A stretch of 58,077 bases of DNA, counting the filler, from Jimgerdemannia flammicorona (Eukaryota), in NCBI GenBank assembly GCA_003990765.1. It is 3 parts of 3 records of this genome, joined end to end, with 100 filler letters (N's around TTAATTAATTAA, not from the genome) between each part and the next. Parts side by side here need not be neighbours in the genome. Positions count along the whole stretch, not along the records: positions 38,787 to 58,077 come from RBNJ01001980.1; 2 more parts are not named here. One strand, given 5' to 3'. Below are positions 13,693-56,428 of this stretch, piece by piece. The notes beneath the pieces are model-generated. The model worked only from the letters and a program-made list of their open reading frames with translations, made no database searches and was not told the origin of the DNA. Each line of letters starts with the position of its first letter. The stretch's first letter is position 1. Position numbers and translations under genes: made by a program.

Positions 13693-13725
13693 GCTGGGGG
13701 GTCAGACAGGGGTGGGGTCACAAGA

Positions 13726-19294: not shown

Positions 19295-19394
19295 NNNNNN
19301 NNNNNNNNNNNNNNNNNNNNNNNNNNNNNNNNNNNNNNTTAATTAATTAANNNNNNNNNNNNNNNNNNNNNNNNNNNNNNNNNNNNNNNNNNNN
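19295..19394. other. Scaffold gap with artificial TTAATTAATTAA linker
   Basis: 100-nt N block with a six-frame-stop linker at 19339-19350, flanked by homopolymers. Confidence 0.97.
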
Positions 19395-20342: not shown

Positions 20343-20804
20343 TTACTCAAACTCCCATATCTTTATGATTTGTATCTCCTTGTACTGTACAATTTGTGTC
20401 ATTACATTCTCCCAGTGATATCTTTTGATATGTCTGAAATCTCCTGGAACTACTCCTCAAAGGTGGGCTAAGGCTGGCTCGTCATCTTTGAACAACTTGT
20501 TGATTCGTTTAGCAATTGTGATCTGAGCATGGGAAAGCTGGCATTCTCTAATCCAGTCTTCTTTTCCCATCTCTGACTGCGAATTCAGTAGTTGTCCCAG
20601 TTTGAAGTATTCTTGAAACTTGGTTCAGTTCTGATTGGCCTTGAAGTGTGAAATTTGTGACAGGTGTGTCTGGACTATGCTTTGGATACTGTCAAAGGAT
20701 TCCTCCATGGTGGGTGGTTCAGTGGTATACCATTGTCTTTCTATGGCTCGCTGTGCAGCACTAATGATCTTGAGAGCTGAGGTGGTACTCCTCTGGTTAG
20801 CCAT
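20343..20804 (-). pseudogene. ORF3 accessory protein (153 aa) between integrase and 3' LTR, copy 1
   Basis: MANQRSTTSALKIISAAQRAIERQWYTTEPPTMEESFDSIQSIVQTHLSQISHFK...EYFKLGQLLN...FKDDEPALAH.... Two internal TGA (probably from CGA). Same length as copy 2. Confidence 0.75.
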
Positions 20805-21985
20805 GGTACCTCTTGAGTCAGTTTCAGTAAATAGTAGTGGGGATGATTGTGCCTGAGAGTTTTCATAGCCAAAAGGTGGTCCCTTTTATATCTTGCACAA
20901 GGTAAGGTCCTTCCCACTTGGGCTCCAGTTTTTATGATCATGAAGCTTCTACCATATTCCAATATACCAGGACTTTGTCTCCTATCTTGATAATCTCTGG
21001 GTTTGTGGGTCTTTTCTGCATTCTTCTATTATAGTGCTTGTACCTTGGTTATGTAATCTTTGGCCCTCTTCCTGATTTGGTGTAGTCTCCATATTTCTCC
21101 ATCCATATGTTTCCATACAACATCTCTATTGGACAATAGGGTTTCTCAAGAACTTTCTTCTCCAAACAACATCTCTTGAGGGGTAAAGTGGGTACTTTGT
21201 GATCTGATATCCTGGAGAGCAGATAATGCTATTGGCAGATAGTGATTCCAGTTTTCATAGTTATCACAGATCTTGGCAATAACATTTTTGAGGGTCTTGT
21301 TAGTCCTTTCTGCTTGTCTGTTTTCTTGAGGGTGATAAGCTGTGGTCTGAATGTGCTGGATCTTGTACTTCTTATAGAGAACCTCAAAGAACTGGTTCAC
21401 AAATTTGGTTCCTCTATCTGTAGTTACTTGCATTGGGGTCTCGAACTGACAGATGATTTCTTTGTAAAAGAATTTAGTGATTGACTGTGCATTGACTTCC
21501 TTGAGGGGTCCTGCTTCTATCTATTTTATAAAAAGGTCTATGATGACAATGATATATTGGTTGCCAGTCAAGGTCAAGGGTAGAGGGCCAATTACATCCA
21601 TTGCTATGTGGGCAAATGGTACTGGTTCTATGTGTGCTGATCCCAGGGCTTGGTTTTGTTGCTCTTGTTTCTGTTTCTGGCATTTGTCACAGGTTTTGAC
21701 AAATTGTCTGATATCTTCCTCCATTCCTGGCCACCATATCATTCTTTTTGCCTTATCATATGTATTTGTTCCTCCTAGATGGTCAAGTTTATGTACTGAT
21801 TTCATTGCTTGCTCCTTCTTGTGTTCTGGTATGACTTGTAGTTTTTCTTTCTTCAGTGTTTCTCCATCAGTTTCAAATTGTTTCCATGTTCTGTTGATAA
21901 TCATTTGTGTCCATTCTTCCAGATGTTGGGGCATCTTTCGCTGTTTCAGATAAGTGATGATTCTATAGTAAAGTTCCTTATTCAT
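20797..21985 (-). pseudogene. ORF2 integrase, copy 1 (own ATG, +1 frame relative to RH)
   Basis: H..DHLG...WWPGM...CDKCQ zinc domain; MDVIGPLP; TTDRGTKF; YHPQENRQAERTN; KLEPKWEGPY. No chromodomain seen. Confidence 0.88.
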
Positions 21986-24900: not shown

Positions 24901-25963
24901 CATATCTTAGTCCATCTCTTTGACTTGCATTTCCATAGTGATTTCCATTTGTTTTTCCACTGGATTCTTCTTGGATCTTCCTGGTGGTCTCTTGTAGGGT
25001 TCCTTGCAAACATCCTTCTTAGTGGTCTGGGCAAGATAGGCCTCCCATTCTTCTTCATTGGAATCTCCAATTTCTTCAAAGATAATTGTGTTGGCCTACT
25101 CCTTGTTTCTAGTAGCATTACTTGATTGGGCCTTGTGCTTGGTTTCACTCATGCATTCATAGAAGTAGTGGCCTTCTTCTCCACAGGTGTAGCAGGTACC
25201 TTTCTTCTTGTCTAAGGTGGCAGCAAACTTCTGAACAGGGCAGCAGTCCCTTTCTCTGATCTCCTTTACCATATCTCTCAGGTAGGCAGTCATTTCCACA
25301 AACCTCTTGGTAAGTTCCTCCAAAGAGTCACTGTTCTTTTGCTGCTCTGTAGCTTTTGGCTGAGGTGTGTTTCGATTGATCATTGTGATAGGGATCACAC
25401 TGCTTGTCTTGGGTGCTTCAATTCTGACTCCTGTGACCCTCTCCATTGTATGGTCTTGTGGGTATCTGACTATCCAGTATCGCTGAGCATAGGTGACCTT
25501 CTGTGATAGATCCAGAATTACTGGTGATGAGCAGATGGCCATGGCTATTTCTGGGTGGACTCCTTTCATGAAGGTTGCTTTGGCTACTTGGTCTCGGATA
25601 GTATTAGCATAATCTGTAAGGATTATCTGGTATCAGATTCTTGTGTAGAATGTGTTTGGATCTTTACTTATTTTGGCATGTTGTATTGAGCTGATCCTTT
25701 AGAGCTTGCTTGATCTCATCTGTATAGTAGGCATTTCAAAGCCAGGTCTTCTGTGCTATCAGTGTAGCATCAGCATTATTTCCTGCATGGTATACAGCTG
25801 TGAATGCTGCTCTTGCAGGGCCTTGTAGGCTAAAGGTCATAAGGGCTACTTGCTGTGCTGCTGTCAGGGCCCTTACAGTGGTATATTACTCGAAATCATC
25901 AATGAAGGTGATGATTGATTCATCTGAGGTATATCCATGAAATACTGGTGGTCTTATATCCAT
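21978..25963 (-). pseudogene. ORF1 Gag-PR-dUTPase-RT-RNase H polyprotein, copy 1 (stops, small indels)
   Basis: MDIRPPVFHG, CYTCGEEGHYFYEC knuckle, AIINTG protease, dUTPase, RT (SPWSSPVVL, LCVDYRKLN, LDLYSGFHQI, YIDN), RNase H (QTDAS, TDHSAL, NSNADALS). Confidence 0.9.
23499..23915 (-). CDS. dut: Trimeric dUTPase domain within gypsy Pol
   Basis: Five motifs: AAGMDI, TRSSLA, GGVINSDYTGEI, DQLAQML, RGKKGFRS. Confidence 0.93.
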
Positions 25964-26562
25964 CTTGTCTGGGTATTGGAGCTCAGTTTGTATAGTTGTT
26001 CAGGTAGTGGCAGTTGTTTGTTGTTCAGCTTGAAAGTGAGGGATTCGTCTTGAATCACCAGCCAATGGGCACTAAGTTGTAATGTAGCAGACACTTACTC
26101 TTGAAAGTATGTTGGATTTCTGTATCTTGAAAACTTGACTGTTCTGACTCTTGCAGAGTCCTTGGGGTTGCAGGGGAGGGTGGGTGAGTTCAAAGTATAT
26201 CTGCCCACAAGCTTACTAGTTCCTTTGCTATCTCTTTGCTTTTTGAACTATTTCAATCTGAGGCTTTATTCACTCTGAGATACTAGGTTATTTATACAAG
26301 TTTTGCTAGCTATAAGATGGCTAAGTTATGACTATGTTTCCTATATATGAGTCATTTCTTTCACAAGTGTTAAATCTTTAACATCTGATAATCATTGAAG
26401 AGTTTAACATCTGTGAATAGTTTAACATTCATGAAAACTTTAACATTTGTGAAATGACTGCTATCTGGGCTATATTATATTTGGGAATCAGATTCAGGTA
26501 CCATGATCAAATGTCTTATTCCCCTGATTCGTATTACTAATTCAGATCAACTGTCACACTAG

Positions 26563-29420
26563 TTATATGTTTTTATACTGTGTGATCTGCTTAATTATAT
26601 TCTCTTAATAATATTTCTTTATCTACCAAAATTCTCCAAGTATTACTCCTTAGAAATAGATCAGAGCTTGCTTATTATCTTTGAATAATCTATTTGATAA
26701 TTGTAATTTGGGTATAATATCTAATCCTTGGTGATCCACTCTTCTTTAGTTATATATTTTTTCTTATTTAGTAATTATTCTATTTAAAGTACTCTTAAAA
26801 CTCAGCATAATTCTGATAGACTCTAAGATATACAATATATGATTAGTGAGTCTGTATAATATTTTGAATACTATCAAAAGACTATTCTATAACAGGCAGC
26901 TCAATTGAATACTATTTTCTTTCAATAGCTTACTAGTCAGTACTTATAATTTTGGTAGTTATAATAGCACTTTATTGGTTTACTATAGTTTTTTTATTTT
27001 TTTTTTTATTTTTTTTTATAGTTACTTTGGACTTTACTATTTATTATCTATTCAGTCTATTAAGATATAATTACAATATCTCAACCCACTATCCAATCTC
27101 CTAAGAGGGACCTCCCACTATACTATTATAATTGAATGCTATCTTACTATCTCTCACTATAACTCTCCTTCTACTTAGTTAACTATAGTACTTCTTGAGT
27201 CAGCTTTAGTGAATAATATATAGCAGAGATAATTATGTCTAATAATTTTTATAGCCAAAAGGTGGTTTCTTTTATACATATTTTATATAATATAATATCC
27301 TTTTCACTTAGCTTTTGTTTTTGTAACTACATATAAAACTTCTATTATATTTTAATATATCAGAACTTTGTCTCTTATCTTAGTAATCTCTAAGTACTTG
27401 TAGATCTTTTCTCTATTATTCTATTGCAATGTCTGTATCTTGATTATCTAATCTTCAGGCTATGTTCTTATTTAATACAATCTCAATATCTTTGTATCTA
27501 CTTGTATATCTATATATTAGATAATAAGAATTCTTTAGAACTTTCTTCTCTAAATAGTAATTCTTAATAGGTGAAGTGAGTACTTTAATCATATATTCTG
27601 AAGAGTAGATAATATAGAAGGTAGATAGTTATCTCAATTTTCATAGTTATGGAAAATCTTAGCAATAATATTTTAAGAGTTTTGTTAGTTCTTTCTATCT
27701 GTCTATTTCTCTATAGATAAGCTATAGTTCAAATGTACTAAATTTTATACTTTTTATAGAGAACCTCAAAGAGCTTATTTATCAGAGTCTTAAATTATTA
27801 AATAAATTCTTTATAAAAAAATTAGCAATTGACTATATATTAGCTTCTTTTGTAAAGAGGTCCATAATGATAATGTTATATTAGCTATCAGTCAAAGTCA
27901 GAGGTATCAGATTAATTACATTAATTGCAATATGAGTAAATAATACTGATTTTATGTCTACTGATCCTAATATCTGATTTTATTAATCTTACTTCTGTTT
28001 CTAATATTTATTATAAGTCTTGACAAATCTTCTGATATCTTTCTCTATTTCAGACCAATACATTATTCTTCTTATCTTATTATAGATATTTGTACCTCCT
28101 AGATAACTAAATTTAGATACTGACTTTAATACTTATTTCTTCTCATACTCTGGTATGACTAATAGTTTCCCTTTTTTTGATTTTTTTCTATTAGTTTTGA
28201 ATTGTTTTCAGCTTCTGTTAATAATTATTTGTATTCATTTTTTAGATGTTAAAATATATTTAACAATCTTAGATAGATAATAATTCTATAGTAGAGATTT
28301 TTATACATTTTGGTTTTACTGGTTTAAGTCCTTCAAGATATCTGTGAGAGGATGTCTACATTGGTATTGACTCTTCTTGGGCAGTATATAATGGTTACAT
28401 TATAGACTTATAGTTTTATAATCTATCTAAAAAATATTCATTAGAGTTTTCTTATAGTCAATAACTAGATCAGGGGCTGAATATTAATCATAATAGTGAA
28501 GTGTCTTTCTGCAAGATAATATAGAACTTTTCTACAGCCCAGATAATAGCAAGATACTTCAGCTTTTTGAATTTATATTATCTTTCTCCTCTACAGATTC
28601 TTTAGCTGAGATATATAATCACATATTTAATTTTATTCTTATTTTATACAAAGTAGCACCTAGTCTAATTGAGCTCACATCTGTCTATAGAATAAACTCT
28701 GAAGATTAGTCAGATCTTCACAAGATAGGTACCTGGATCAATCAGGTCTTGAGATGTTCAAAAACTTATTATTATCTACTAGTCTATTGAAACTTAGTAT
28801 TTTTCTTAAATAGTTCATAGATAAGATTTGCATTATTGGAGAATCCTTTGATAAACATACTGTAATAAGTAGTAAGTCCTATAAAAGCTTGAGATTCTGT
28901 AACTGTGATAGATCTTGAGCAGACTGTGATTGCTTGAATTTTAATAAGATCTATATAGATTTTAGTCTAATTGATGATATATCTAAGATAAGTGATTTTG
29001 ATTTCTGAAAACTTACACTTCTTTGACTTAATATACAGATCATATATCTTAGTTTTTGTAAGATTTAGTAGATGTGATTTAGATATTCCCTAGCTATCAT
29101 GCTAAAGATATTATATTATTCACATATACTATAATCTATTTTTCTATATCTTTGTATAAGATCTTATTTATTATTCTCTGGAAACTTACTGGGGTATTGT
29201 ATATTCTGAATAGTATTTACAGTTAGACATAGGTTTCTAAAGTTCTGAGTATAAATTCAATATAATGTAGTATTGTACTTTATCTTCTATATGTATCACT
29301 AATGAGGAGCAGTAGTTGGTAGTCCTTCTTGGTGATCTCATTGAGCTTTCTGTAGTCTATATAGAGTCTTGGAGAAAATTCTTTTAACTTGCTTCCTTCT
29401 TCAGAATTAGTACAATTAAT
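26563..29420 (-). mobile_element. Older, heavily mutated related gypsy element (RT-RH-IN-ORF3) interrupted by copy 1; its 3' end continues at ~19660-19805
   Basis: Collinear, TpA-shifted similarity to copy 1 RT/RH/IN. The ORF3 homolog reads continuously across the CTAG insertion site. LTR-edge and purine-tract remnant at ~19725-19760. Confidence 0.8.
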
Positions 29421-30261
29421 AGTTAGGCTGTGCCACCACATATTGAGTTGCTATATAACTAAGATATTTCAATATGAATAAAGAGTAGAGCTATATTATT
29501 GATATTGCCATTAAATCGATCTTGCTTATAATTTATACCTATGAAAAAACAGCCATAGTTTGCTTTGAAACCCACATGTCGTGGTTTACGCTCTCACTGA
29601 TGGTGGTAAAGACGGAATATTCTGACTATGAGATGTGCCGAGATCGAGCAATGCAGGTTCACCCTACATACTCTTCCTGTATTTAACCAGAATAGAGAGT
29701 AATATAAATAAATTAATAATAATATTAAAACGAAAAGAAAAAGGGAGAAACCCTGTACTGAGATTAATATATTTGACAAAGAGCAGCATTTTGATTGCAG
29801 CGTTGCGATTGATGACGTAGATTTTGATGATGTCGACATTACTGGCGTAGTATCCACAACAAATAACTTGCCAAACATGAGCACGTTGTATGACGAATTG
29901 GGAACTTTGTACATGTTGATCGCACACCAAAATCACACAGGCTGCGGATATCGGCAGTTATGGAGAGGTTGGTCCAAAGTTGCATCCTGACCAGCGTCAC
30001 ACGGATACTCTCCCATATAAAATTATTTTATTTATTTGGTCTTTATCATGCCTTAATTCAAAGCCAATGTTCAAATGATAATACAACAATTTGATTTTTC
30101 TTTAAATATATATATTTTTATAAGCATAAGAATGGTTTTGTCTCAGAGTCAGTGCATAGCATGCTATTGTATCTAAGCATGTAAATACGTTCAAGTAAAA
30201 AAAAAAATAAAAAAAATAAAAAAAATACGAACTTATCTACGACAAAGCAAAAATTGGAGGT

Positions 30262-30969
30262 TTATGACCGTCGTTCTTTTTCGTAGATCCAGCAAAGTCT
30301 GCCGAGGTGCTTACAACGATCGCAAGGCGCGCCTCGACATCCTTTCTTATCCAATTTGCACCCAACGCACACTTTTCCAGGCGGGTTCCGTTTTGTGGTG
30401 ATGACGGTAAAGTGAACGCGGCATCGCCTCTTCCTCTTCAAACAGTCTGGACATGACTTGTATGGCATAGGTTTTTGTATAGAAGTCGGTGCTTGTTGTA
30501 TGATGTTCGCCGAAGAAGATAGTGGAAGAGATGGTGGACTGGCAAGGGGATTCCGAAAAATTGGCTCTGGCTTAGGTGTTGCTTGATACATAATTGCGTC
30601 GCCATTTGGGAAGTTACAAAGGTAAGATTCCGATTTGAAGTGAGGTTGTATGCCATCGAGGCGGCTGTGCGAGATTTGGTCTAAACCACCAATTGGAAGG
30701 ATGTTCATGTAGTAGGAAGGAGGTACACAGACAGGGGTACCGTATGGCACGGCGTTGTTACGAAGCACCGATTTGAGATAGTTTTGAAGGGTATTGAAGT
30801 TGCCATTGGGGCGTATCTGAGAGTGGCGGAGGAAGCACCAGGAATGTGATAAAAAAGGCGTGCTGGGCGAGCTGAGGTTGACGTCGCGAAAAATGAAAGA
30901 GGACAGCGACTGCGCCTCGGGCTTTGGAAGAGAGGGATGGAATTTTGTGGTGTGTGATTTGTTAGCCAT
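30262..30969 (-). CDS. Intronless C-terminal Zn(II)2Cys6-like zinc-cluster protein (paralog 1)
   Basis: CVGCKLDKKGCRGAPCDRCKHLGRLC preceded by CPDCLKRKRRCRVH. Pro/Ser-rich N-terminus. CpG-normal. Confidence 0.8.
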   Translation of the reverse strand: MANKSHTTKFHPSLPKPEAQSLSSFIFRDVNLSSPSTPFLSHSWCFLRHSQIRPNGNFNTLQNYLKSVLRNNAVPYGTPVCVPPSYYMNILPIGGLDQISHSRLDGIQPHFKSESYLCNFPNGDAIMYQATPKPEPIFRNPLASPPSLPLSSSANIIQQAPTSIQKPMPYKSCPDCLKRKRRCRVHFTVITTKRNPPGKVCVGCKLDKKGCRGAPCDRCKHLGRLCWIYEKERRS

Positions 30970-32179
30970 GTTCTGCTGTTATAAAAATTTCACGCGAAAA
31001 AAAGAGCCCTTTATACGATAACTATTCAGTTGTGGTTATCCGAATCCAAAACCGCCTGCCAAGTGGACATTTTGGGCATGTGACGTGTTCTGAAGTCTGC
31101 ATTGAGCGGTGTAACAGGAAAGAATGAAGTCGTTTAAAACAGCGGCTCCCCCCTGCATAGACTGTGTTGGACGGTGTAACATGAAAGAATAGGAAATTAT
31201 AAAAGGTGAGAATGTTACACCGTTTACGGATGCCCAACCCAACTTGACCCATGTGTAGGGAAGACTTCGTGGGACGGTGTAAAGGAAAGAATGATGCACG
31301 GTTTGTGGCTAGCGCATAATGATCAACGAGATATTTCGTGCTGCCTAATTCTTTTAATTACTAAATCGGGCCTTTCTCGAGTCATTCTCGGACAAGTAGG
31401 ATCGAATGAGACCGATAACATGGGGACTTGGCCCCAATGTGACCCATTATACCTTCATCCTATCTTCGCTCCGTGCCCAAGGTCATGAGACTTGTCGTGG
31501 TGGATTGAACATTTTTGCGAGCATCCGGAAAGGAAGAAGGTAATGGTCCCGATGGACAATGGCTCGGCCCACTATATGAATTTTCGAAAATGCTCATCTT
31601 CCGTGTGAGACAACATGGAATGTGTCTTAAGAATTCATGTAGATTGAATACATATCGCAGTTCGGAATATCGCGACGGGGATGATTGAAATTGGGAAAGG
31701 TTGTGCATCAAATCTTCGTGCTTAGGAGGTCATCGCCTTCTCGTTGTCATATTCACTCCGAAGCGCAAAATGTTTTCAAACAATATTCAAACTATCTAAG
31801 ATTAGATACAAAACTACAATATTCTGAAACCCAGTAAACCTTTACGATACGATATTCCACCCGTACCACGGCTCAGATACACTAAGGGGTTCACTCCCTT
31901 TCCTGATGAAAGTGAAAGTTTAATGATTTCCGAGTCCATCAGAACCTGCGGACACTCTTCCAAAATTGGGGGAAGGATTTACCTGCATGATCACGTCTTG
32001 ACACCATGTCTGCCTTCTTGGCCTGCTGTCCAACGGTCAACATTTGGGTGGCCAATTGGGCTCTCTCAACATGTCAAAGGTGGAGAAGTTCTCGTGCGAG
32101 ATTATCATGTTCGTTTTTTGAGCATGATATGACTCCTTATTGGATTGGTGCGACCCGAATGAGCAGCCAGGAAATGGGA

Positions 32180-32933: not shown

Positions 32934-33581
32934 TTACTTATTGTCAACCCAACAAAATCTGTCGAGGAGGTTACAACGAGCGCAGGGTGCGCCTCGACAT
33001 CCTTTCTTATCAAATTTGCACCCAACGCACACCTTTCCAGGCGGATTCCGTTTTGTGGTGCTGACGGTAGCGTGAACGCGACATCGCCTCTTCCTCTTCA
33101 TGCAGTCGGGACATCTCTTGTATGGAATAGGTTTCGGTATGAAAGTGGTCAGGGTGGGGGTTTGTCGGTTGACGTTGGCGTTGGAAGGCAGTGGAGGAGA
33201 TGGTAAAATGGCAAGGAGATGCCCTGCTTTTGGCGTTGCTGGATTCATCACTGTGTCACCATTAGGAGAGTCGCTGGCGTAGGGTTCAGAGTGCGAGCTT
33301 CGGTCTATATTTCCAATTGGAATTGGTACACTTGTTGTGACGCCGTCCGGCATTACTCTGTCATGAAGCACCGATCTGACATGATCTTGAAGTATATCCA
33401 GATCGCCTTTTGGGAGCAACGGGGAGCGGAATAAGGGGCATAGGGCTTGAGATGAATGAGGCATGCTAGTAGGGCTAAGGCCAAGGTCGTCGAAGTCGCG
33501 AGAGGATCGAAATTGATCTCCTGGCCTAGGAAGAATGCGTCGGTATTTGGTGTACGAAGCGTCGTCTATGTTTGCTTCCAT
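32934..33581 (-). CDS. Intronless C-terminal Zn(II)2Cys6-like zinc-cluster protein (paralog 2)
   Basis: CPDCMKRKRRCRVH and CVGCKFDKKGCRGAPCARCNLLDRFC. First ATG at 33581. Clear paralog of 30262-30969. Confidence 0.8.
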   Translation of the reverse strand: MEANIDDASYTKYRRILPRPGDQFRSSRDFDDLGLSPTSMPHSSQALCPLFRSPLLPKGDLDILQDHVRSVLHDRVMPDGVTTSVPIPIGNIDRSSHSEPYASDSPNGDTVMNPATPKAGHLLAILPSPPLPSNANVNRQTPTLTTFIPKPIPYKRCPDCMKRKRRCRVHATVSTTKRNPPGKVCVGCKFDKKGCRGAPCARCNLLDRFCWVDNK

Positions 33582-35199
33582 ATTTGCTTTTACACTCGTT
33601 TCATGCAACAAACGGCGTATTTATATGTGGCTATGTCGACTGGTTTTGGGCAGACTGACCGTACGATCACAATATCGGAATCCCCTATGTGGACATGTGA
33701 CGAAACTGGCAAAGTTACACGGATGCGGTACCGATGGTAGGATATTGGAAAAACTGCTTAATTGCTATTTCAAACATTATGTTTCCCTCCAACAGTTTTT
33801 CGACCGCGAAACCTTTGACCTATGTATCGTAAGACACGACCTTAGTTCGCAAATCCGTTGCTCATTTTAAGACTCGTGAGTTTCTTTAGCATCCTCAATG
33901 GCTACAAATGAGAGAAAATGTAGGGAATATCGTTATTTACATCTGGGACCGACATGACAGATATGACCCGAATCTGCGTTAGTAGCGTCACAGGATCAAA
34001 CGTCGTCACGCCAAAAATGTCGATAGCGTGTACCAATGCCGCGTGCTTACAATGCACAAATTTAGATCGGCGATCAAAAGCCCCTTACTATCTAGAATAG
34101 AAGACAATCGCGTCGAAGTAAAAAACCTTCACCCACTAAAAAATAGACAAACCGCCCGTTTCGTGCGCGGAAGCGTTATCAAATTACGTTTATTTATGAA
34201 ACGCTTGTACAATTACTATACGTAGCTATGCAAGGAAAATTATGACGTTGAACAGGTTGTACAATTTTCGTGCTTAACGTGTTCAAAGCCTTTCAGTAAT
34301 TTTAAAAGGCTTTCTTACCTGTCGCAAAGGCAGCTCCGCCCACTAGATAATAGATAAACCCCTTGATTCGTGTGCGTCAACATGCATCTACGTTTTTTAA
34401 TGAAACCCTGAACAATTACTATACATAGCTCTCAGGAAAAATTGAGTTGTACAATCTTCTTAAAGTGGGTTAGATCTTTTTATTCGCTAGGGTGTAAAAT
34501 GTTCATGAAAAATAGGACTAACCTTCGTCAACATTATATCCCGTTTGTGCCATTAGATCACATAATCAAAAACTTCATGGGAGATTTCTGTGCAATGGCG
34601 ACTCAATATGTTAAAGTGTGCACTCAAAGTGTAAAGAATTGTGAAGTTCATGCCCTAGAAATAGAATCCGCACAGAAGATATATTTAACACTAATATTTC
34701 TGTTCACGAGCCGCTGAACAACAAAGGAAATTTTGAGGGGAGTTATGACAGCGATTGGTGACCCAAATTTTGACGGTAACACTATAATTGAATAGCCACT
34801 ACCACGTGACCAGCCTCCAAGGATCATCTCTTCCTGACGTGACACCAGCGATCCATCAACGAAATTAATTTCGGCCCCTTTGTTGATCCTGGGTGATTCG
34901 CCTATGGTGTTCCAAACCATTATCTCCATCAGACCGCTATACCTAGACTGCTCGTTGACTGGTGTTGATGAGGTTGGGTACAGGAAAGATTGACGTGGCC
35001 AGCCAACTCGCTTGCATTGCATATTATCTCGTTGATGAAATTCTCATTATTACATCTTGATAATGTGGCTTATATATGTAACTACGACATCTTTAAGTTA
35101 CGTCACTCGACGCGCTATCTGGAATAATAAACAACGCCCCTCTTCTCCTCCAACATATAGCAGTTGAAAATAATTTTTATTCACCACTGGACAAGATGT

Positions 35200-35944: not shown

Positions 35945-38786
35945 TTATGGAATACTTAGAAGAGGCTTGCAAGAAGAGGGTTATTTATTATTGATTACAG
36001 AATATATGCTTTAATATATATTGATTGATGATATAGTCAAGAATTGGCTGCACTACTATATATTGAGATATAACCCAAATTCTAGAAATTTCAATACTCC
36101 TGCTCAATGAGATATGCAAACTATAAAGAAAAAACTAAGCTATAATCTTTGCAAATCTCACTGCAATATTCAATTACTATCTAGAAACTGAAAAATACTC
36201 AAATTCTCTACTTATAGGATCAAAAATAGGTTGAAAAACAATACAATGAAGATATATAGATGATAAATATTGGTAGAAATCACCAATGTAAAATCAATGT
36301 TAGAAGAGAGGTTTGCTACTGCTCTATTATTCTATTTTATCCTGAAATATCCTTATTACTAGTATATAGCCCTGTAATATCTATTCCTTGTATACATAAG
36401 TCAAACTTTGTCTTTGAAAGGGCTTTAGTCAATGAATCTGCCATCATATACTCCATTGAGATATATTCAAGATATATAGTTCCTTTTTCTATACATTCAT
36501 ATATGAAATAGTACTGTATATTAATGTGTTTCATTCTGGCATAATGTATAGAGTTCTTTTCCAAAGCTATCATCAACTGGTTGTCTTACTAAAGTAGTAT
36601 AGAGTGCTGTTGCTCATATCCTACATAACTCCCTTAGAGCTATATAGCTTCCTTTATTACTATTGACAATACTTGATATTCTACTTATATAGAAGATATC
36701 ACCACCAAAGATTGCTTATATATTTATCATGAAATAGCTCCTTTTTCACTGATTTTAAAAAGATATCTAGTTATAGACCATCTATTATCCAGATCACTAG
36801 CCCAATTAGTATCACATATACCAGAGAGATTTATGATACTTTCTGCTTTATCTCTTATTACTGCCTAAACTGAGTGTATAGTATACTGTTCTCTTGATAT
36901 ACTGAAGAATGCACTTAACTGTCATCTAATGCATATTATTATAGTATGATGAGTATTGCACTATCTTGTTCACAGTATAGGATATATTAGGTCTTGTCTC
37001 AAGTATAAGATATATGAGAGATCTCACAGCTTATCAATAGGAGATGTCATTATCTTTGGGTGTAGTTTCAGACTTCTTTAATCTCATAAATATCTCTATA
37101 GGTATCTCAACTGACTTACATTTACTCATACCAAATTATTCAAGTATAGTTTAAATATAGGCTCCTTAGCTCAGATATATAGTCTGTACACTCCTGTCAT
37201 ATGTAATAGATATCTCCAAAAGGAAAGACATGCTCCCCATATCTGTCATCTTGAATTTCTTATGTAGTGCTGCCTTTACCTCATTGATTTCACTCACTGT
37301 TCTAACCAAAATAATATCATCTATCCAAATTTCTAGGTATACTGTTCCTAAGGATATATTTCAGATATATATGTATGGATCAGCTTCATAACATTCAAAT
37401 CCATTGTCTAAGAGATATTTGTTGATTTTTCTATAGAGCCCTTTACATAGTTTACATACAAGTTCATTCTGATTATTATTATAGAGTTTGTATCTCTGTG
37501 GCTAATAAATATATAGTTCTATATCTATATCACCATTCAAGAATGCTGTCTTTACATCCATTTGGTGGATTTCATAGTTATATTTAGCTCTGATCACAAG
37601 AAGTATTCTAAGTGAAGTAAGTTTGAATACTAGGGAAAATATCTCATCATAGTTAATACTATAGTCTTGCAAGTATCCCTTTGCTACAAATTAAGCTTTA
37701 TACTACTCTATACTGCCTTAACTATTCCACTTAACTTTGTAGACCCACTGAGATACAATGGCTTGTCTATTCATCAGGAGAGAAACTAGATCCCAGATGT
37801 TATTCTTGATGAGTGAACTATACTCCTCATCTATAGTCTTTTTCTATTTTCTATTATCATTTGAATATATAGCTTCATTATAGATTGAAGGCTCATCTGC
37901 CATAGCTATGTAAGTGTATTTGTAGACATAGTTTATATGATGTTTGCTACTGTGAGATTTCTTCAGAGCATCCCAATAACCTCCTAAATCTGCCTCTACT
38001 TCATTCTGTAGTCTAGATTTGTGTATTTTTTTGCCCTTTAGAGAGGTATTTTCTTTATTGTCCTTATCTATAATTTCCATAATTCTTGACTCTGGTAGCC
38101 TCATTGGTATGAATATAGGTTATGCTGGCACTGATATAGGTGCCAGAAATGTCTTTGTAGTTATTTTGGCTGCTATTCCAGATGTAAATGCCATTCTGCT
38201 AGCCCTTGAAGTTAGTATAGATGTTGTTGGCTGTACTATCAGATTTACCATCAGATTTGAGATAGAAATTTCTATCTAAATTTTCTGATTTTTGATCTTA
38301 ATCTTCTTGAACTAGATATTATGAGAGATGACTGTATAATACTTCTGTAGATTTCACAGTCTATATGCTACTCCATCATATCTAAGGAATATATGCTTTT
38401 CTACTTTAGGCTCAAATTTGCCTCTATTGCCACCTTTATCCAGAATGTAATCCTTGCTTTCAAATATACATAAGTGTGAGATATCTGACTTGGATCCACT
38501 CTATAATTCCTCAGAGATAAGATCATTCCTGTGATCATCTGACTGATTGTTATGAAATTCTTTACATTTCTTACTTAAGGCTTAAGAAACATAATGATTA
38601 CTGGTATATGCTGCTGTATTCACTGCTTCAGCCCAGAAGGAGTATGATAAGTCAGCTATATTTATCATTTTTTTTTTTTTTTTTTTNNNNNNNNNNNNNN
38701 NNNNNNNNNNNNNNNNNNNNNNNNNNNNNNTTAATTAATTAANNNNNNNNNNNNNNNNNNNNNNNNNNNNNNNNNNNNNNNNNNNN

Positions 38787-42420: not shown

Positions 42421-43717
42421 TATATCAGTCTGGTCTCTTATAGATAAGTATCTTTAAGAGATCTTAAATTATCTGAGAAGAATAAAATTTATAAATAATG
42501 ATAATAAAATTTTATATTAATATATTATTAAGTATAATATAAATTATAATTAAAATATTATATTTAGATACTATATATTATACATATATATATTAGATTT
42601 TATAAATAGATATATATAAGTTATATTAGATTTAGGGTTAGTAATTAGAGTTAAGGTTAGGATAGGTTTAAGTAAGATTAGAGTAGATTTAGTAGAGTTA
42701 GAGTAGGTTAAGTTATGTTGAGGTTAGATTAGAAAATTTCAAATAAATTATTATATATATATATATATATTTTATTTATATAATATAATTATTATAATAT
42801 ATAAGTAAAATAATATATAATTGAATAAATATTATTTATACTATTATTTTAATAAGTTATAATAGTTAAAATACTCTTTGAGATAATTAGTCTCTAGACT
42901 ACTTTTCTTATTATAGATTATAGAGATTTTCATTTATTGTGATAAGTGGTAGATTATTCTACTAAAATTATAAATTAGCAATATATCTTATCTAGTATAC
43001 TAAGTAACCAAAACTGCTTTATATTCTATTCTGTATAATTAGCTAAAGATAACAGAAATAGTATTTTTACCTATATTGGTCCAATATACTATACTGAGTA
43101 AATATGTTATATCAGTCCAGTATACTATACTATCTAGTATAATGACTGATCTGAATTAGTAACATAAAACAGGGGAATTAGACATTTGATTGCGGTATCT
43201 GAATCCGATTCCCAATATAGCTTAGCCTCATAAATAGCAGCCACATTCTGCAAAGTGCAGAAACTTTAACATTTGCAAGGATTTAGAAGATGTTAGAATC
43301 TTCGCAATCAGCAAAATCTTAGCAGATGTTAAAAGATTCAGTACTTGCAAAATGAGCCATTACTTAGCCACCTTATAGTTAACAAAACTTGTATAAATAA
43401 CCCAGTATCTTAGAGTGAATAAACCTCAGATCGAAATAGTTCAAAAGTAAAGAGATAGCAAAGGAACTAGTAAGCCTACAGGCAGATACACTTCAAACTC
43501 ATCCACCCCTACATCCCAAGGACTCCGAGAAGTCAGAGAAGATCAAGTATTCAAGATACAGAAATCTGACATACTTTCAAGAGTAAGCATTTGCTACATT
43601 ACAACTTGGTGTCCATTAGCTGGTAATTCAAGACAAATCTCTCACTTTCAAGCTGAATAACAAACAACTGCCACTACCTGAGCAACTATACAAACTGAGC
43701 CACAATACCCAGACAAA

Positions 43718-46700
43718 ATAGATATGAGACCACCAGTATTTCACGAGTATATATCAGATAAATCAATCATTACCTTCATTGATAATTTCAAGCAGTATAC
43801 TACTATAAGGACCCTGACAGCAGTACAGCAAGTAGCCCTCATGCCCTTCAGCCTATGAGGTCCTGCCAGAGCAGCATTCACAGCTACAACCCATGCAGGA
43901 AATGATGCTGATACCATACTAACAGCACAGAAGACCTGGCTCTAAAATACATATTATACAGATGAGATCAAGCAAGCCCTGAAGGATCAGCTCAATACAA
44001 TATACCAAGGAATAAGTGAGGATCCAAACACATTCTATACCAGAATTCAATATCAGATAATTCTCGTGGATTATGCTGCTGCTATCTGAGATCAAGTAGC
44101 CGAAGCAACCTTTATGAAAGGAGTTCACCCAGAGATAGTCATGGCCATCCGTTCATTACCAGTAATCCTGGATCTGCCACAGAAGGTCATGTATACTCAG
44201 CGATATTGGACAGCCAGACACCCACAAGACCATACAATGGAAAGAGTCACAGGAGTCAGAATCAAAACACCAAAGGCAACTAGTGTGATCCCTACTATAA
44301 TGATCAATTGAAACACATCTCAGCCAAAAACTACAGAGTAGCAAAAGAACAGTGACCCTATGGAGGAACTTGCCAAGAGGTTCACCAAAATGACTGCCTA
44401 TCTAGGAGACATAGTAAAAGAAATCCAAGAAAGAAACCACCACTTAGTTCAGAAGTTTGCTACCACCTTGGATAAGAAGAAAGGTACCTGCTATACTGGA
44501 GAAGAAGGCCACTACTCCTATGAATGTATGAGCAAAACCAAGTGCAAGGCTCAACCAAGCAATGCTATATGAAACAAGGAGCAGGCCAATACAATTACCT
44601 TCGAGGAAATTGGAGATTCTGATGAAGAAGAATGGGAGGCCTATCCTGCTCAGACTACTAAGAAGGATGTTCGCAAGAAACTATACAAGAGATCACCAGG
44701 AAGACCCAAGAAGAACTCAGTAGAAAAGTAGATGGAAACAGCAACTGAAAGTCAAGCTGAAGAGATGGACCAAGATATAGAGCTGGAGGAAGCAGTTCAA
44801 GATATTATCCGAGGAACTACCATAGCCAGCGAAGGAGAAAAAGAAAAGAAACTTCACAAGACCAAGACTTTCAAGTATGATATCTTCAAGAATCTTAGCC
44901 AACAAAAGGTCAATGCAACCTTTGGACAGCTCACAGAAATCCCAACATTCAGACAACAAATGAGGTTTGGACTTGCCGAAACAACCAAGGAGCAAGGATG
45001 GAAGATAACTGAGGCCAATAACATTCAAGAGAACTCAGGAGAAGAAAGTGAAGACAATCGCAAAACCTCTGCCTATGCAATATGCCAAATCGAAGATAGG
45101 GTCTTTGAAGTCATCATAGATACTGGAGCAGGAGGATATCTTCTCAGTAAGAAAGTAGCAGACTGCCTAGGCTGGGAAGTTGAAGAAGCAATCAAGTTGG
45201 TTTTTGTCACAGTAGATGGCACAAGAGCCACCCTTCTGGGAAAGATCTGAGAAGTCTCCATCAAGATTGGAGGAGCAACTATTCCAGTAGATGTAATTGT
45301 AACCAATGCCACCAACTATGACATCCTTATTGGCAATCAATGGCTCCACAAAGTCAGGGCAGTAATCAATCTCAATGCCCAGAAGATGCAAATCACCTAC
45401 CGGGAACAGAAGATATGAATTCCCATCAATGTCAACAAAGGAGTCTTGCCTGACATGAAGGAAGAAGAGAGCAAGCAAGAGGAAGCTTATATGATGACCA
45501 TACAGAAAAAGAAGAAGAAAGTCAGATAGATGAATGAAGAAGAATGGTACAAGAAGATTGCAGAAGGATATGCATTACAAGGAGTCTGCCCACATGGAAT
45601 CCGAATGTACTGTATGGAGCATGTCAATGAGTGCTACTAGTGCACTGGCAAAATCAAGGAGATCTACCACCAAAGAAGAGAGAAGACCCTCAAGAAACAA
45701 GCCAAAGAGAAAAAGGAGGAGGAAGATGATGAACCACCAGCCCTTCTGGAGGACAGTGATGATGAAGAAGAAATCAAGGTCAAAATCTGAAAGACTCACC
45801 CTGATGCAGTCCTGCCAGAATACAAATCGGAAAATACAGCTAGAATGGATATTGCCACAGTGGAAGAAACTGTACTTGAACCCCAGACAACTACTCTACT
45901 TGCAACTGGCCTGGAGATGACCATCCCAAAGGATTATGTTGGGATCCTCAAGACAAGAAGCAGTTTGGCAAGAAGCGAAATTACGATTGAAGGAGGAGTC
46001 ATTGATTTAGACTACATTGGAGAAATACTACTCATCACTAAGAATCACAATTTTACTATTCTATTCCCAATCAAGAAGAGGAACTGACTGGCACAGATAT
46101 TGATCTTTCCAGTCCAATAACTAAGGATCATAGAAGTCAAGAAGTTGGAGGAAATGAAAAGAGGAAAGAAAGGATTCGGATCCATAAGAAATGGAGTATT
46201 TGCCAGTACCAAGATTACTGAACTAGAGCACAAGAAGGAGGAAATCACAAACAAGCACAGTTATACCATTGGAAATGAATTTCCACTCAAGGAGGAACTC
46301 AAGAAAATACTCCATGAATTCAAGGATGTTCTCACCACAGATTTCAAGAATATCAAGGGAAAGACCCCACACTACTATCATGAGGTAGATACTAGAGACA
46401 CCAAACCAATTTACCAGAAGGCAAGACCTGTCCCACCAGCCTACTGAGAATGGCTCAGAGAAGAAATCAAGCAGATAGAAGAAGCTGGTATTATCAAAGA
46501 AGCCAGCAGCCCCTGGTCTTCACCAGTTGTACTAGCTCCGAAAAGGAAGCAAACCTGGAGAATTTGCCCCAAGACTCTGTGTTGACTACAGAAAGCTCAA
46601 TGCAGTTATCAAGAAGGATTGGCAATCACTGCCCCTCATCAGTGACATCCTTATAATACTGGAAGATGAAGTACAGTACTATAGTACCTTAGACTTATAC

Positions 46701-47708
46701 TCAGGATTCCACCAAATTGGACTCACAGAGATGGCAAGTGAAAAGTCAGCCTTCATCACCCCAGACAGGACCTACATCTACCTATGAATGCTATTCGGGA
46801 TGTGTAATGCACCAGCAAGCTTTCAGCAAATGATGAACAAAATCTTCTGCTATGACATGGGAAGATGGATGATGGTCTATGTCGATGATGTAATCATCTA
46901 CAGCAAAACACCTGAGGAACACCTGTAGTACATACAGCAGATTATGGAAAGACTGAGAAAACACAGCCTGTACATCAAGCCCAAGAAATGCAAGTTTGCA
47001 GAAATCAAGATCTCCTATCTTGGCCATATTATCAATCGAGATGGAACACACATGGACCCCCTCAAGATATAAGCAGTAGCAGCATACCCAAGGCCCACCA
47101 CTGTTACAGAAGCCCAAGCATTCATGGGACTTGCCTCCTACTATAATAGATTTATTAGAGGATTTTCCAACATTGTAGGTCCAATCTATGAACTCAACAA
47201 GAAGAACATCAAGTTCCAGTGGACTGGCAGACAACAAAAAGCATTTGATGAACTCAAAGTCAGACTGACCCAGGCACCCATCCTCAGATGACCCAATTGG
47301 ACTCAAGAATTCATCCTGCAGACTGATGTAAGTATACAAGGACTAGGAGTAGTTCTAGTTCAAAAGGAAGATAAAAAAGAGTATATCATTGCATACCTAA
47401 GCAGAGGAACCCAAGGAGCTGAAAAAGAATATGAATCCTACAAGTTGGAATGCCTTGCAGTTATCTGGGCCATGGAAAAGTTCCACTACTATCTGGCTGG
47501 AAGACACTTCACCATTTAGATGGATTACTCAGCTCTCATCTGGCTACTGACAATTGGACAACCCAAAGGAATCTATACCAGATGGATAATGAAGTTACAA
47601 GCCTATGATGTAACCATTGTACACTGCCCTGGAAGAACAAATTCCAATGCAGATGCTCTCTCACGGACACCTTGAAACACCCCCAACCAACAAATCAATT
47701 ATGAATAA
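43718..47708 (+). pseudogene. ORF1 Gag-PR-dUTPase-RT-RNase H polyprotein, copy 2
   Basis: ORF pieces at 44114, 44360, 44732, 45845 and 46145 are all in one frame (no gag/pol shift). IIDTGA protease, dUTPase 45773-46186 (GVIDLDYIGEI, RGKKGFGS), RT YVDD, RH NADALSR. Many premature stops. Confidence 0.9.
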
Positions 47709-48907
47709 GGAGCTCTACTATGGAATCATCACATATCTGGGACAGCAAAAGATGCCCCAACACCTGGAAGAATGGACACAAATGATTATCAACAGAACAT
47801 GGAAACAATTTGAAACTGATGGACAAATACTGAAGAAAGGAAAACTACTAGTTATACCAGAACACAAGAAGGAGTAAGCAATGAAATCAGTATATGAACT
47901 TGGCCATCTAGGAAGAACAAATACATACAACAAGGCAAGAAGAACAATATGGTGGCCAGAAATGGAAAAAGATATCAGACAATTTGTCAAAACCTGCGAC
48001 AAATACCAGAAACAGAAACAAGATCAACAAAACCAAGTCTCAGGATCAGCATATATAGAACTAGTACTATTTGCCCATATAGCAATAGATGTAATCAGCC
48101 CTCTACCCTTGACCCTGACTGGTAACTGATATATTATTGTCATCATAGACCTTTTTACAAAGTAGATAGAAGCAGGACCTCTCAAGGAAGCCAATGCACA
48201 GTCAATCGCTGATTTCTTCCACAAAGAAATCATCTGCTGGTTTAAGACCCCAATGCAAGTAACTGTAGATAGAGGAATAGAATTTGTGAATCAGTTCTTT
48301 GAGGTTCTCTATAAGAAGTATATATAAGATCCAGTACATTTGGACTACAGCCTATTATCCTCAAGGAAATGGACAAGCAGAAAGGACTAACAAGACCCTC
48401 AAGAACATTATCGCCAAGATCTGTGATAACTATGAAAACTGGGATCACTATCTGCCAATAGCATTATCTGCTCTCCAAGATATCAGATCACAAAGTACCC
48501 ACTTTACCCCTTGAGAAATGCTGTTTAGAGAAGAAAGTTCTCAAGAAATCCTATTGTCTAATAGGGATGCTGTATGGAAACATGTGGATGGAGAAATATG
48601 GAGACTACACCAAATCAGGAAGAAGGCTGAGGATTACATAATGAAGGTACAAGTACTACAATAGAAGAATGTAGAAAAAACCCACAAACCCCTGGAGATT
48701 ATCAAGATAGGAGACAAAGTCCTGGTGTATCGGAACATGGTAGAAGCCTCATGGTCATGAAAACTGGAGCCCAAGTAGGAAGGACCTTACCTTGTGCAAG
48801 ATATAAAGGGAACCACCTTTCGGCTATGAAAACTCTCAGGCACAATCATCCCCACTACCATCCACCAAAACTGACTCAAGAAGTATCATGACCAGTCAAT
48901 GAAGTAA
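47701..48907 (+). pseudogene. ORF2 integrase, copy 2 (own ATG overlapping the ORF1 stop)
   Basis: ATGAATAA junction. GHLG..WWPEM..CDK, YPQGNGQAERTN, EGPY. Confidence 0.88.
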
Positions 48908-49349
48908 TACTGCTACCCTCAGAATTACTAGCATGGCCCAGTAAGCCATTGAAAGACAGTAGTGTTCTACCGAGCCACCAACAATGGAAGAATCCTTTGA
49001 TAGCATCCAGAGTATAGTGCAAACACACTTGTCACAAATCTCACATTTCAAGGCCTACCAGAACCAAACTAAGTTCCAGGAATACTTCAAGTTGGGACAG
49101 CTACTGAATTCAAGACTGAAGATGGGAAAAGAAGACTGGATTAGAGAATGTCAACTCTCCTACACTCAGATCATGATTGCAAAAAGGGTGCATAAGTTAT
49201 TTAAAGACGATGAGTCAGCCTTAGCCCATTTCTGAGGAGTAACCCCAGGAGACTTTGGATATGTCAAGAGACAATATTAGAAGGATGTAATGACACAAAT
49301 CACACAGTATAAGGAAATATAAATTATAGAAGCCAGGGAATTTGAGTGA
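48888..49349 (+). pseudogene. ORF3 accessory protein (153 aa), copy 2
   Basis: Contains ORF 48984-49235 (MEESFDSIQ...EYFKLGQLLN...AKRVHKLFKDDESALAHF). Extends in frame through stops to 154 codons, as in copy 1. Confidence 0.75.
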
Positions 49350-50289
49350 ATAGGATACTCCAGAGATAAATCACCTATTCAGGAGGAAGATGTGACAGCT
49401 GATCTGAATTAGTAACATGAAATAGGGGAATTAGACATTTGATTGCGGTACCTGAATCTGATTCCCAATATAGCTTAGCCTCATAAATAGCAGCCACATT
49501 CCACAAAGTGCAGAAACTTTAATATTTGCAAGGATTTAGGAGATGTTAGAATCTTCGCAATCAGCGAAATCTTAGCAGATGTTAAAAGATTCAGTACTTG
49601 CAAAATGAGCAATTACTTAGCCACCTTATAGTTAACAAAACTTGTATAAATAACCCAGTATCTTAGAGTGAATAAAGCTCAGATCAAAATAGTTTAAAAG
49701 CAAAGAGATAGTAAAGGAACTAGTAAGCCTGTGGGCAGATATACTTCAAACTCATCCACCTCTATATCCCAAGGACTCCGAGGAGTCAGAGAAGATCAAG
49801 TATTCAAGATACTGAAATCTGACGTACTTTCAAGAGTAAGTGTCCACTATGTTACACTAGATATACCTACTATAGATAGTAATCTATAATGAATAATATA
49901 GTAACTAAATAGTAACTACAACTGTATAAAATACTCCAGAGATAATAGTGATTAAAAAATCAATCCAAAAAAGTTCAAAAAGCAAAAAACCAGTCTGTCT
50001 TTTATATTTTGTAAGAAACTCTATAGCTATTACTTAGAGATTGTAAGCTTACTTTCCCCACTTTGGTTCACTTTCTAATATAAAGAATAAGTTTGTTTTT
50101 CAAGAAAAGTATATTTTTAGTTTACTATTTAGATAAGTGAAGAGAAATCTATTATTTCCAGAGAGCTCACTATGAAATCTTGCTATAAGTCAGTCTATCT
50201 GATATAACTTTACAGTAGAGCTAGTATATTATAACCTCATATAAATAAAGCCAGTCTTTGATAAAGAATATATATCTGAGCTATTTGTA

Positions 50290-55231: not shown

Positions 55232-55260
<29 letters not shown>

Positions 55261-56428
55261 TGAACTCAATGTCTTGTGGATTTTTATTGGAAGGGAACCT
55301 AGACTATATAGGCCAAAACCCTCTCCCACCACCCATCAAGCACTGTCTCCCTATTAACCCAGGCTAGCTATTATCTACCAGCTCAACCATATCAGGTACA
55401 GTAGGACCTATGGCAGCCCGCACCTCATTCTGCACACCATCTCTCCCTACTACCAGGGGAAACCCAGCCATATGCCAATGACCAAAAGCATATACCTGAG
55501 AATCCAATGTATGTATAAGGCCATGTCTGAGCTGAATAGAATAGCCTCTGCCACCCCAAAGAGAATGACAGATAAAGAAAAAATCCTTATCAAAGCACAA
55601 CATAGTCGGTAGAGGCTAGTTCTCTCAGTTGAGGTGAGTAAAGAACTTACACATGAGGTGGGAGGAGACTCCCAATACTCCACTACTCAAGTCTGCAGGT
55701 CTCAATCACATTGCTATTTCAGCTCTTGGTTCTAGTTGAGTATAGCCAAGATGCCTAAAATGGGTAGCCTTGGGCCCCCTGACTCCCTCAGATGACTGGG
55801 ACCCAATCTGCTTAATTGCCAAAAGAAGCTGAGAGTGATACCTACTATCTAACTATGCCGCACCAATCAAAAGGCCCCACTGAAGAAGCACCCACTCCAG
55901 CCCCAATGACTGCCCTTAGCCTGGTACTCTACTGGTTTACTGTTATTGTCCTTCTTCTTATCTGTGATAGCCATCTCTCCTCCCATCCTAACAATACCTA
56001 AAAAGCAGTCACCTATACCAGAACTGTGCTCATCAGGAAGCTCACCAAAGCCAGAGGGCCCCATTACAAGCACTGAGGACCTGCAGGTAACCTACACTGA
56101 GCACTTGATGCCTAAGGTCAGCTGACTCTCTACATAGTCCAAGAAATACCGAGACAGTACCTTATTAGCAATGACAAAAGGAAGAAGATACTACACCAAA
56201 ACAGATATACTTCAGATATAGCCGAAGGCACCAGAAACTGCTAAAAAGTGGAGAAGACACTGATCTGACACTAATAAAGAGGCAACTTATCACTATTGCC
56301 TCCCTCCCACTATACTGCAACAGGTACAGCAAACCAACCTGAGGTAGAGGGGATAATAATTATAGAAAGTGGACTTGGAAGGTTGCCTACCAAACCATTG
56401 TGACCAGTAAGATAGTGGAGAAAGGATG
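55232..56428 (-). mobile_element. 5'-truncated polyA non-LTR retroposon (copy 2), 13-bp TSD
   Basis: PolyT at 55232-55258. TATAAATGAAGTC is duplicated at 55219-55231 and 56429-56441. Homologous to 16779-17844 and ~120 bp longer at the 5' end. Confidence 0.88.

Follow-up and report, generated by a model that had tools for sequence, protein, structure and literature searches.

We analysed a 58,077-nt stretch of DNA from Jimgerdemannia flammicorona (GenBank assembly GCA_003990765.1), made of three parts of three genome records joined with filler letters and called here the window. It carries two copies of one long terminal repeat (LTR) retrotransposon family, and our subject is the border between the RNase H (RH) and integrase (IN) coding regions of these elements, where the start codon of the integrase lies on top of the stop codon of the preceding open reading frame (ORF). 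The LTR pair of copy 2 is 94.6% identical over 442 nt (repeat search and LTR alignment) and that of copy 1 is 92.1% identical over 492 columns (LTR alignment). We read the LTR ends and their flanks by eye from the LTR alignment. The ends have the form TG...CA (TGTGACAG...ATTACA in copy 1), and a short target duplication, CTAG, stands on both sides of copy 2 (43134-43137 and 49857-49860) and of copy 1 (26562-26559 and 19809-19806). CTAG is a palindromic tetranucleotide and the wider flanks of the two copies are unlike; it may reflect a target-site preference of the element (n=2 insertions). Ginger1 DNA transposons have a reported preference for CCGG. In the ORF pieces of copy 1, Pfam finds an aspartic protease (PR), a dUTPase, the reverse transcriptase (RT) domain RVT_1, RT_RNaseH and Integrase_H2C2. 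The order Gag(CCHC)-PR-RT-RH-IN is present in these pieces and in the metagenomic relative L010, with an extra dUTPase (E = 1e-23 in copy 1 and 2e-33 in L010) between PR and RT. The integrase has Integrase_H2C2 and rve modules by Pfam, and its database relative P0001 has KWEGPF (GPY/F, the name used for this gypsy integrase motif in PMC2836005). With LTRs, domain order and integrase modules all in place, the window elements are Ty3/gypsy (Metaviridae) LTR retrotransposons.

Both copies are pseudogenes. Read in the standard code they hold many stops and several private frame changes, and over 6164 alignment columns they are 86% identical, with 714 transitions versus 107 transversions. This pattern resembles C-to-T hypermutation of repeats, either like repeat-induced point mutation or by deamination of methylated C. 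The many TAA, TAG and TGA codons first suggested a ciliate-type genetic code, a reading that we dropped because table 6 restores no long ORFs and the stops are private C>T changes. One TGA is common to both copies, at the start of RT (PPAY*EWLREE; 23243-23241 on the minus strand and 46445-46447 on the plus strand). We rejected it as a readthrough site because the residue aligned with it in both copies is Arg in the relative L007 and CGA>TGA is the commonest type of decay here; this TGA is probably such a change, either parallel or inherited.

At the RH/IN border the pol frame passes the last conserved RNase H motif, and the integrase frame (MNKELYYG...) then opens inside the octamer ATGAATAA, at +1 relative to the RH frame in both copies. 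The octamer closes both of the other frames at the start codon, with TGA at 47702-47704 and TAA at 47706-47708. A sequence-only reading of this DNA had reported an ATGnnTAA overlap in both copies, joined to RH by a linker of equal length. The octamer is indeed present in each copy (Table 1), and the alignment of the two junctions (345 columns, 94% identity) has no internal gap and therefore gives the same linker length. The further statement that the RH frame reaches GAA TAA fails for both copies as they now stand, each having an earlier private stop: TGA at 47673-47675 in copy 2, where copy 1 has CGA, and a TAA in copy 1. Judged from the copy alignment, both of these stops are private C>T changes. 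A TAA at 47875-47877 interrupts the integrase ORF of copy 2 as well, which also has frame changes near 48300 and near 48630. A listing of sequencing runs that contain the family named no RNA run and three DNA runs, all from one soil-metagenome study, of which X2 and X3 carry almost none of it. From run X1, 421 contigs were aligned to the family; position 47673 is C in both contigs that cover it, and 47875, part of the TAA in copy 2, is C in all 18 covering contigs. An X1 contig of depth 35 covers 47568-47720 with 0 gaps. The window also holds a third element, in which ATGTATAA is retained and the RH tail lacks 1 nt relative to copies 1 and 2, in a region of ~28% GC. The in-frame Met behind a TAA that had been described for this element is there, with a TGA preceding as well; the element is too decayed for its junction to count.

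Table 1. Retrotransposon features in the window (positions along the whole stretch; RH, RNase H; IN, integrase)
Feature	Positions	Strand	Basis or remark
LTR retrotransposon, copy 2	43138-49856 (ends approximate)	+	LTRs ~43138-43603 and ~49391-49856
Copy 1, same LTR retrotransposon family as copy 2	19810-26558	-	5' LTR 26558-26078, 3' LTR 20301-19810
dUTPase domain, PR-RT interval, copy 1	23244-24671	-	Pfam PF00692
dUTPase domain, PR-RT interval, copy 2	~45790-46090		homologous to the copy 1 domain
ATGAATAA stop/start overlap, copy 2	47701-47708	+	sequence reading
ATGAATAA stop/start overlap, copy 1	21985-21978	-	sequence reading, copy alignment
NADALSR, last conserved RNase H motif, copy 2 pol frame	47646-47666	+	RT_RNaseH match (Pfam) in the copy 1 homologue
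RH tail, copy 2: 13 codons of low conservation, then the pol stop TAA (47706-47708)	47667-47708	+	
IN start codon, copy 2, inside ATGAATAA	47701-47703	+	+1 to the pol frame
Private RH-tail stop TAA, copy 1 (CAA in copy 2)	21995-21993	-	frame reading, copy alignment
IN ORF, copy 2: YPYY-like N-terminus, H2C2 zinc finger, rve core	47701-48950 (end approximate)	+	
Third element, heavily AT-decayed relative	~26700-29500	-	
Third-element junction AAAACCAAAATG	28317-28306	-	Met in frame with RH, behind TGA and TAA

The DNA of relatives came from one metagenome scan that gave 89 relatives, of which 80 loci were kept. Eight close-clade loci form the junction set; since L004 and L005 are the same at the junction, there are seven distinct junctions, from elements whose integrases are 42-99% identical to P0001. 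In all seven, the stop of the RH ORF overlaps the integrase ATG or lies <=8 nt behind it. The junction is ATGAATAA in L001, ATGAATAG in L010 and ATGnnnnnTGA in L002 and L007, each with the integrase at +1, and it is ATGA in L004/L005, L009 and L012, where the integrase is at -1; in all, the integrase is at +1 in five lineages, the window's included, and at -1 in three. The ATGAATAA octamer is retained even in L004, where pol uses the other frame. The sequence-only reading had raised the question whether the ATG and the +1 offset are fixed. The ATG is present in all nine junction sequences, where it occupies differing codon positions of the pol frame; the offset is not fixed, given the -1 lineages. 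Stop and start overlap by 4, 8 or 11 nt in 9/9 junction sequences, within the ~20 nt that characterizes stop-restart sites, and position -3 of the ATG is A in seven of nine and G in one (purine in 8/9). In the sequences compared here, the constant element is a stop codon placed beside the start codon, not the +1 offset.

Several relatives have open frames on both sides of the junction. In L010 an ORF of 1350 aa, already open where the contig begins, contains CCHC, PR, dUTPase, RT and RH and is followed by a 419-codon integrase frame with H2C2 and rve (Pfam). L005 has a 971-aa ORF and the integrase, L004 a 509-aa ORF and a 431-codon integrase frame, and L009 a 186-aa ORF and a 442-codon integrase frame. 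The separate integrase ORF behind a gag-pol without frameshift, as proposed from the window alone, is therefore visible in these four relatives; gag-pol is a single ORF without frameshift, and selection maintains the split before the integrase. The RH motif is in the integrase frame in 0 of the 8 junction loci, and that frame is open upstream for just 5-37 codons, which bears out the earlier view that the split is a feature of the family and not a 1-bp insertion. Because the layout recurs in intact relatives it goes beyond chance, and by these comparisons the two-ORF RH/IN arrangement is a conserved family trait rather than decay.

Database proteins show the two halves separately. P0001 is a stand-alone 433-aa integrase with 69% identity to the window integrase (copy 1 homologue), and P0002 is a 412-aa integrase with 40% identity and the N-terminus MNKEVYYG. 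On the other side of the junction, P0005 is an RT-RH ORF with 81% identity that ends in ...HHE, 13 residues past ALSR, which is the tail length and the last residue of the window element. A 13-residue RH tail ending in E is found in L001, L010, P0005 and P0162, and the stop after this tail is seen as DNA in L001 and L010. To survey integrases, we ran an exhaustive HMMER search with P0001 and then classified database proteins with hmmsearch. Sixteen database integrase cluster representatives start exactly at the homologous Met, and 4 more carry this Met behind 2-24 extra residues. The 27 top-scoring integrase rows (23 database proteins, some of them N-terminal fragments, and 4 metagenome-locus ORFs) have no RT/RH part, and the first fused polyprotein appears at rank 28 (hmmsearch). 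Among 120 RT-RH proteins related to P0005, the RH motif was found in 105, and 61 have a tail of <=40 aa. The last residue is Q, K or E in 21 of these 61 short-tailed proteins versus 6 of 44 with longer tails (background 18%, p=0.002), an excess at the protein ends that fits NNA-TGA or GAA-TAA endings of the RT-RH ORFs. The nearest Atlas cluster is commonest in Mucoromycota, and RT-RH relatives at ~50% identity are assigned by NCBI to Rhizophagus irregularis.

More distant relatives include the ordinary fused layout. We tallied fused and split arrangements in 63 of the 80 loci, setting aside 17 whose matches have little or no DNA upstream. Sixteen of the 63, all of them at <=35% identity to P0001, carry the RH motif and the integrase in a single frame. 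Loci L027, L038, L056-L060, L063, L066, L075 and L076, with a short open stretch before the integrase, look like decayed fused elements and were counted neither for nor against the split. A scan of viral contigs gave 1 distant fused locus, and a scan of genome contigs with alignment A3 gave no relatives' locus. We then placed 55 chosen integrase rows (10 close split, 12 more distant split, 1 Ulp1-bearing and 32 fused) in a quick maximum likelihood tree. A branch with Shimodaira-Hasegawa-like approximate likelihood ratio test (SH-aLRT) support of 100 has all the split rows to one side of it, together with two fused proteins, P0124 and P0152; the close clade (SH-aLRT 99) holds both +1 and -1 forms. 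In a sister group, represented by L083 (1-2481) and L082, the RH ORF runs into a ~270-aa tail that is not integrase, followed by an AT-rich spacer and an integrase ORF that begins at the homologous Met. Contamination is suggested for these two because eukaryotic retroelement contigs are binned in bacterial metagenome-assembled genomes.

How would the integrase of such an element be made? What has to be explained is observed directly: a two-ORF layout, its conservation in intact relatives, an invariant ATG, and a stop placed at the start in both frame directions. We lean modestly towards coupled termination-reinitiation at the pol stop and the integrase AUG. The genomic RNA would hold two cistrons, a long Gag-PR-dUTPase-RT-RH ORF without a gag/pol frameshift and then a separate integrase ORF whose AUG sits on top of the pol stop codon (AUGAAUAA in the window copies; AUGA or AUGnnnnnUGA in relatives). 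A ribosome would end pol at the stop, some 40S subunits would remain on the unstructured C/A-rich RNA, and the retained subunits would restart at the adjacent AUG with its purine at -3, yielding the integrase as a free protein at a small fixed ratio to Gag-Pol. We infer that integrase translation depends on pol termination and that the integrase dose is thereby lowered. We favour reinitiation because the shift goes either way, a slippery site is missing and the ATG is invariant, and because overlapping stop and start codons are a recognised signature of reinitiation after long ORFs. Such overlaps (AUGA, UAAUG) are documented as reinitiation signatures in caliciviruses, influenza B, respiratory syncytial virus (RSV), Cryphonectria hypovirus 1 (CHV1), Helminthosporium victoriae virus 190S (HvV190S) and the retrotransposon SART1 (PMC10275272).

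A number of points weigh against coupled reinitiation. In the calicivirus type, the TURBS (termination upstream ribosome-binding site) has a core, UGGGA, that is complementary to 18S rRNA and flanked by a stem; TGGGA occurs in 0 of 9 junctions in the 120 nt scanned upstream. RNAalifold on 7 junctions gives 0 pairs, and 7 sequences folded singly are no different from their shuffled versions (z between -0.89 and +1.25). A ribosome that has read >1000 codons does not ordinarily restart unless a special signal assists it, and no such signal turned up here. The conserved N-terminus by itself accounts for part of the stop placement, since an ATG with any A-initial codon after it makes TGA in one frame, and because the relatives share ancestry the 7 junctions amount to fewer independent observations. 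A free integrase also leaves its delivery into the particle unaccounted for. In the sister group, the integrase ATG of L083 comes ~300 nt after the RH ORF and ~100 nt after the closest stop upstream, with an AT-rich spacer, and the spacer layout of L082 looks similar; going by these two sequences, an AUG-dependent integrase start without tight coupling exists in a nearby group.

Because the sister group starts its integrase without a tight overlap, independent initiation remains the main rival. The integrase cistron would then be started at the conserved AUG regardless of pol termination, from a subgenomic or spliced mRNA or by internal entry on the A/C-rich leader. Spliced or internally promoted subgenomic RNAs are known from other retroelements, an invariant ATG with a purine at -3 suits any AUG-dependent route, and in L083 and L082 an AT-rich spacer takes the place of an overlap ahead of the integrase ATG. 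The 40 nt upstream are in addition G-poor in the +1 type (3-6 G/40, versus 19-23% G in the element body) and unstructured. We nevertheless consider this route possible but doubtful, since it offers no cause for a pol frame that is open as far as the ATG and closes <=8 nt later at 7/7 junctions, in three forms and in both directions. A programmed frameshift at the pol stop, +1 over the U of UAA, UAG or UGA in the window lineage and -1 in the ATGA lineages, would instead give a Gag-Pol-IN fusion. Frameshifting is common practice among retroelements, +1 shifts over the U of a stop codon are known from antizyme and Euplotes, and a fusion would account for the packaging of integrase; GAA-UAA-G puts a slow-decoded stop in the A site, where a one-base skip leads into the integrase frame. 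We find frameshifting improbable all the same. Both directions occur in one clade, whereas a frameshift signal would impose a single one; different codons stand before the stop (GAA, GCG, UUG, CAA, AAA, CUA); the -1 lineages have no X XXY YYZ heptamer ahead of it; and neither RNAalifold nor single folds give a stimulatory structure. A frameshift does not require an AUG, yet all 9 junctions have the ATG, and 16 database clusters begin with its Met. A conserved shift heptamer and a single shift direction, the marks of a programmed site, are absent from these junctions.

Two further explanations were considered. Splicing within pol is reported from plant Ogre elements, and a short intron that removed the junction would leave RH and integrase fused in the mRNA. 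We rate this as very improbable: GT is missing from -45 to +8 of the ATG in 6 of 9 junctions, those of both window copies, L001 and L010 among them, a donor further upstream would remove the catalytic ADALSR motif, and the frame correction would have to differ between +1 and -1 lineages. The offset could also be a 1-bp indel inherited by a non-autonomous, decaying sublineage, with the ATG there by coincidence. Both window copies are dead, riddled with transitions and share the TGA at the RT start, and the third element has RH and integrase in one frame, all of which would suit such an origin. It is already contradicted by the intact two-ORF relatives across 42-99% integrase identity to P0001, and the depth-35 X1 variant crosses the junction without a gap. 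The shared TGA aligns with Arg in L007 and is probably CGA>TGA, and the third element keeps ATGTATAA, differing by a 1-nt shorter tail in a region of ~28% GC. We therefore give the indel hardly any credence, the least of all the explanations considered.

Coupled reinitiation, the explanation that we prefer, has counterparts among viruses and retroelements. In caliciviruses and influenza B, as here, stop and start overlap out of frame or stand a few nt apart (AUGA, UAAUG), and the downstream protein is produced in a low, constant proportion (PMC10275272). The window family differs in having neither TGGGA (0/9 junctions) nor a conserved upstream fold, and in that its upstream ORF is Gag-Pol and its product an enzyme, whereas the product there is a minor capsid or matrix protein. 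Because the motif test failed, we do not class the RH/IN overlap as TURBS-type. HvV190S (AUGA with an upstream pseudoknot) and CHV1 (UAAUG), whose stop/restart requires upstream coding sequence, resemble our family in the AUGA overlap of the -1 lineages (PMC10275272), and the host is probably a fungus here too; the window lineage differs in using the 8-nt overlap AUGAAUAA. AUGA occurs in L004/L005, L009 and L012. Sites of the victorivirus type have an H-type pseudoknot ahead of the AUGA; the folds give no sign of one here, but pseudoknots are outside the reach of the folding tools used. SART1, a non-LTR element, likewise makes the second protein of a retrotransposon by stop-start coupling (UAAUG, ORF1/ORF2; PMC10275272), but its split separates a Gag-like ORF1 from the whole of pol and needs downstream RNA structure, whereas here the split is inside pol, between RH and integrase.

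The +1 frameshifts of Ty1/Ty3 and the -1 frameshifts of retroviruses also use overlapping, out-of-frame ORFs that set the dose of a downstream enzyme. They occur at gag/pol or pro/pol, without an AUG and in one direction, whereas in the window family gag-pol is one ORF and the break comes before the integrase, with an invariant AUG and in both directions. Ginger1 DNA transposons share with our elements a free-standing gypsy-type integrase gene and a YPYY-type N-terminal region; their transposase has YPYY, H2C2, DDE and GPY/F with a C-terminal OTU or Ulp1 (PMC2836005). The window elements differ in having LTRs, Gag, PR, RT and RH, which makes them retrotransposons and not cut-and-paste elements, and they have no Ulp1 or OTU. 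Where Ginger1 has terminal inverted repeats, no RT, and OTU or Ulp1, the window elements have direct LTRs and RT/RH. Fungal gypsy elements of the PosPlaTy3-5 type have a dUTPase between PR and RT, so that this feature is already known in fungal gypsy (PMC2864245); the available text of that paper mentions no split integrase. Other ORF splits are described in PMC5911963, PMC4427930 and a 412/mdg1 preprint.

The window has several features beside this family. Its GC content alternates between blocks of ~43% and blocks of 19-28%. A different retroelement lies on the minus strand at 10568-15312, bounded by 298-nt direct repeats (10568-10865 and 15015-15312, 92%). Its 563-aa ORF has weak RVT_1 and RNase H matches and its 172-aa ORF a weak match to a tyrosine recombinase (Phage_integrase), all below the Pfam cut-offs, and the element looks DIRS-like. 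Two paralogous ORFs, 30262-30978 (minus strand, 238 aa) and 32934-33620 (minus strand, 228 aa), share an 84% identical 226-nt stretch; both have a cysteine-rich CxxC...CxxC...C end and no Pfam match. Another repeated element is represented by 16772-17780 and 55237-56249, which share three direct-repeat blocks at ~79-80% identity, 38.5 kb apart in the window. Finally, 19295-19394 and 38687-38786 each consist of two 44-N runs with 12 bases between them, beside long poly-A runs, and the N runs are probably masked or unresolved stretches.

A link between the split integrases and Ginger1 emerged from the protein survey. One database protein, P0157, has H2C2, rve and a C-terminal Ulp1 (Peptidase_C48), which is the architecture of a Ginger1 transposase, and Ulp1 was found only in this protein. 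In the quick tree it stands among the split integrases, on the same side of the SH-aLRT 100 branch and sister to P0149 (SH-aLRT 94). Which gypsy lineage is nearest to Ginger1, and where Ginger1 originated, is left open in the available text of PMC2836005. On the evidence of a single protein in a quick tree, a natural intermediate towards Ginger1 would be a gypsy clade whose integrase has its own free-standing cistron. The larger proposition, that a whole Ty3/gypsy clade, seemingly common in Mucoromycota-like soil eukaryotes, both makes free integrase by stop-start coupling, rather than by cleavage from Gag-Pol, and was the stepping stone to Ginger1, we regard as unlikely.

LTR retrotransposons and retroviruses are understood to bring integrase into the particle within Gag-Pol, with the enzyme dose set at the gag/pol border. 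In the elements described here, dose control appears at the RH/IN border, and the integrase would be a free protein. In the literature searched, outside of which lie most subscription journals and the Repbase reports, we found no paper on an LTR retrotransposon whose integrase comes from a separate, overlapping cistron, and the production of integrase through a stop-start RH/IN layout is apparently undescribed. Pipelines for annotation that look for a single pol ORF will record such elements as broken. The layout raises the questions of how a free integrase would find its way to the cDNA and what signals would allow restart after >1000 codons in a fungus-like host. It also raises the question of whether a free-standing integrase cistron eased the change from retrotransposon to DNA transposon that Ginger1 represents.

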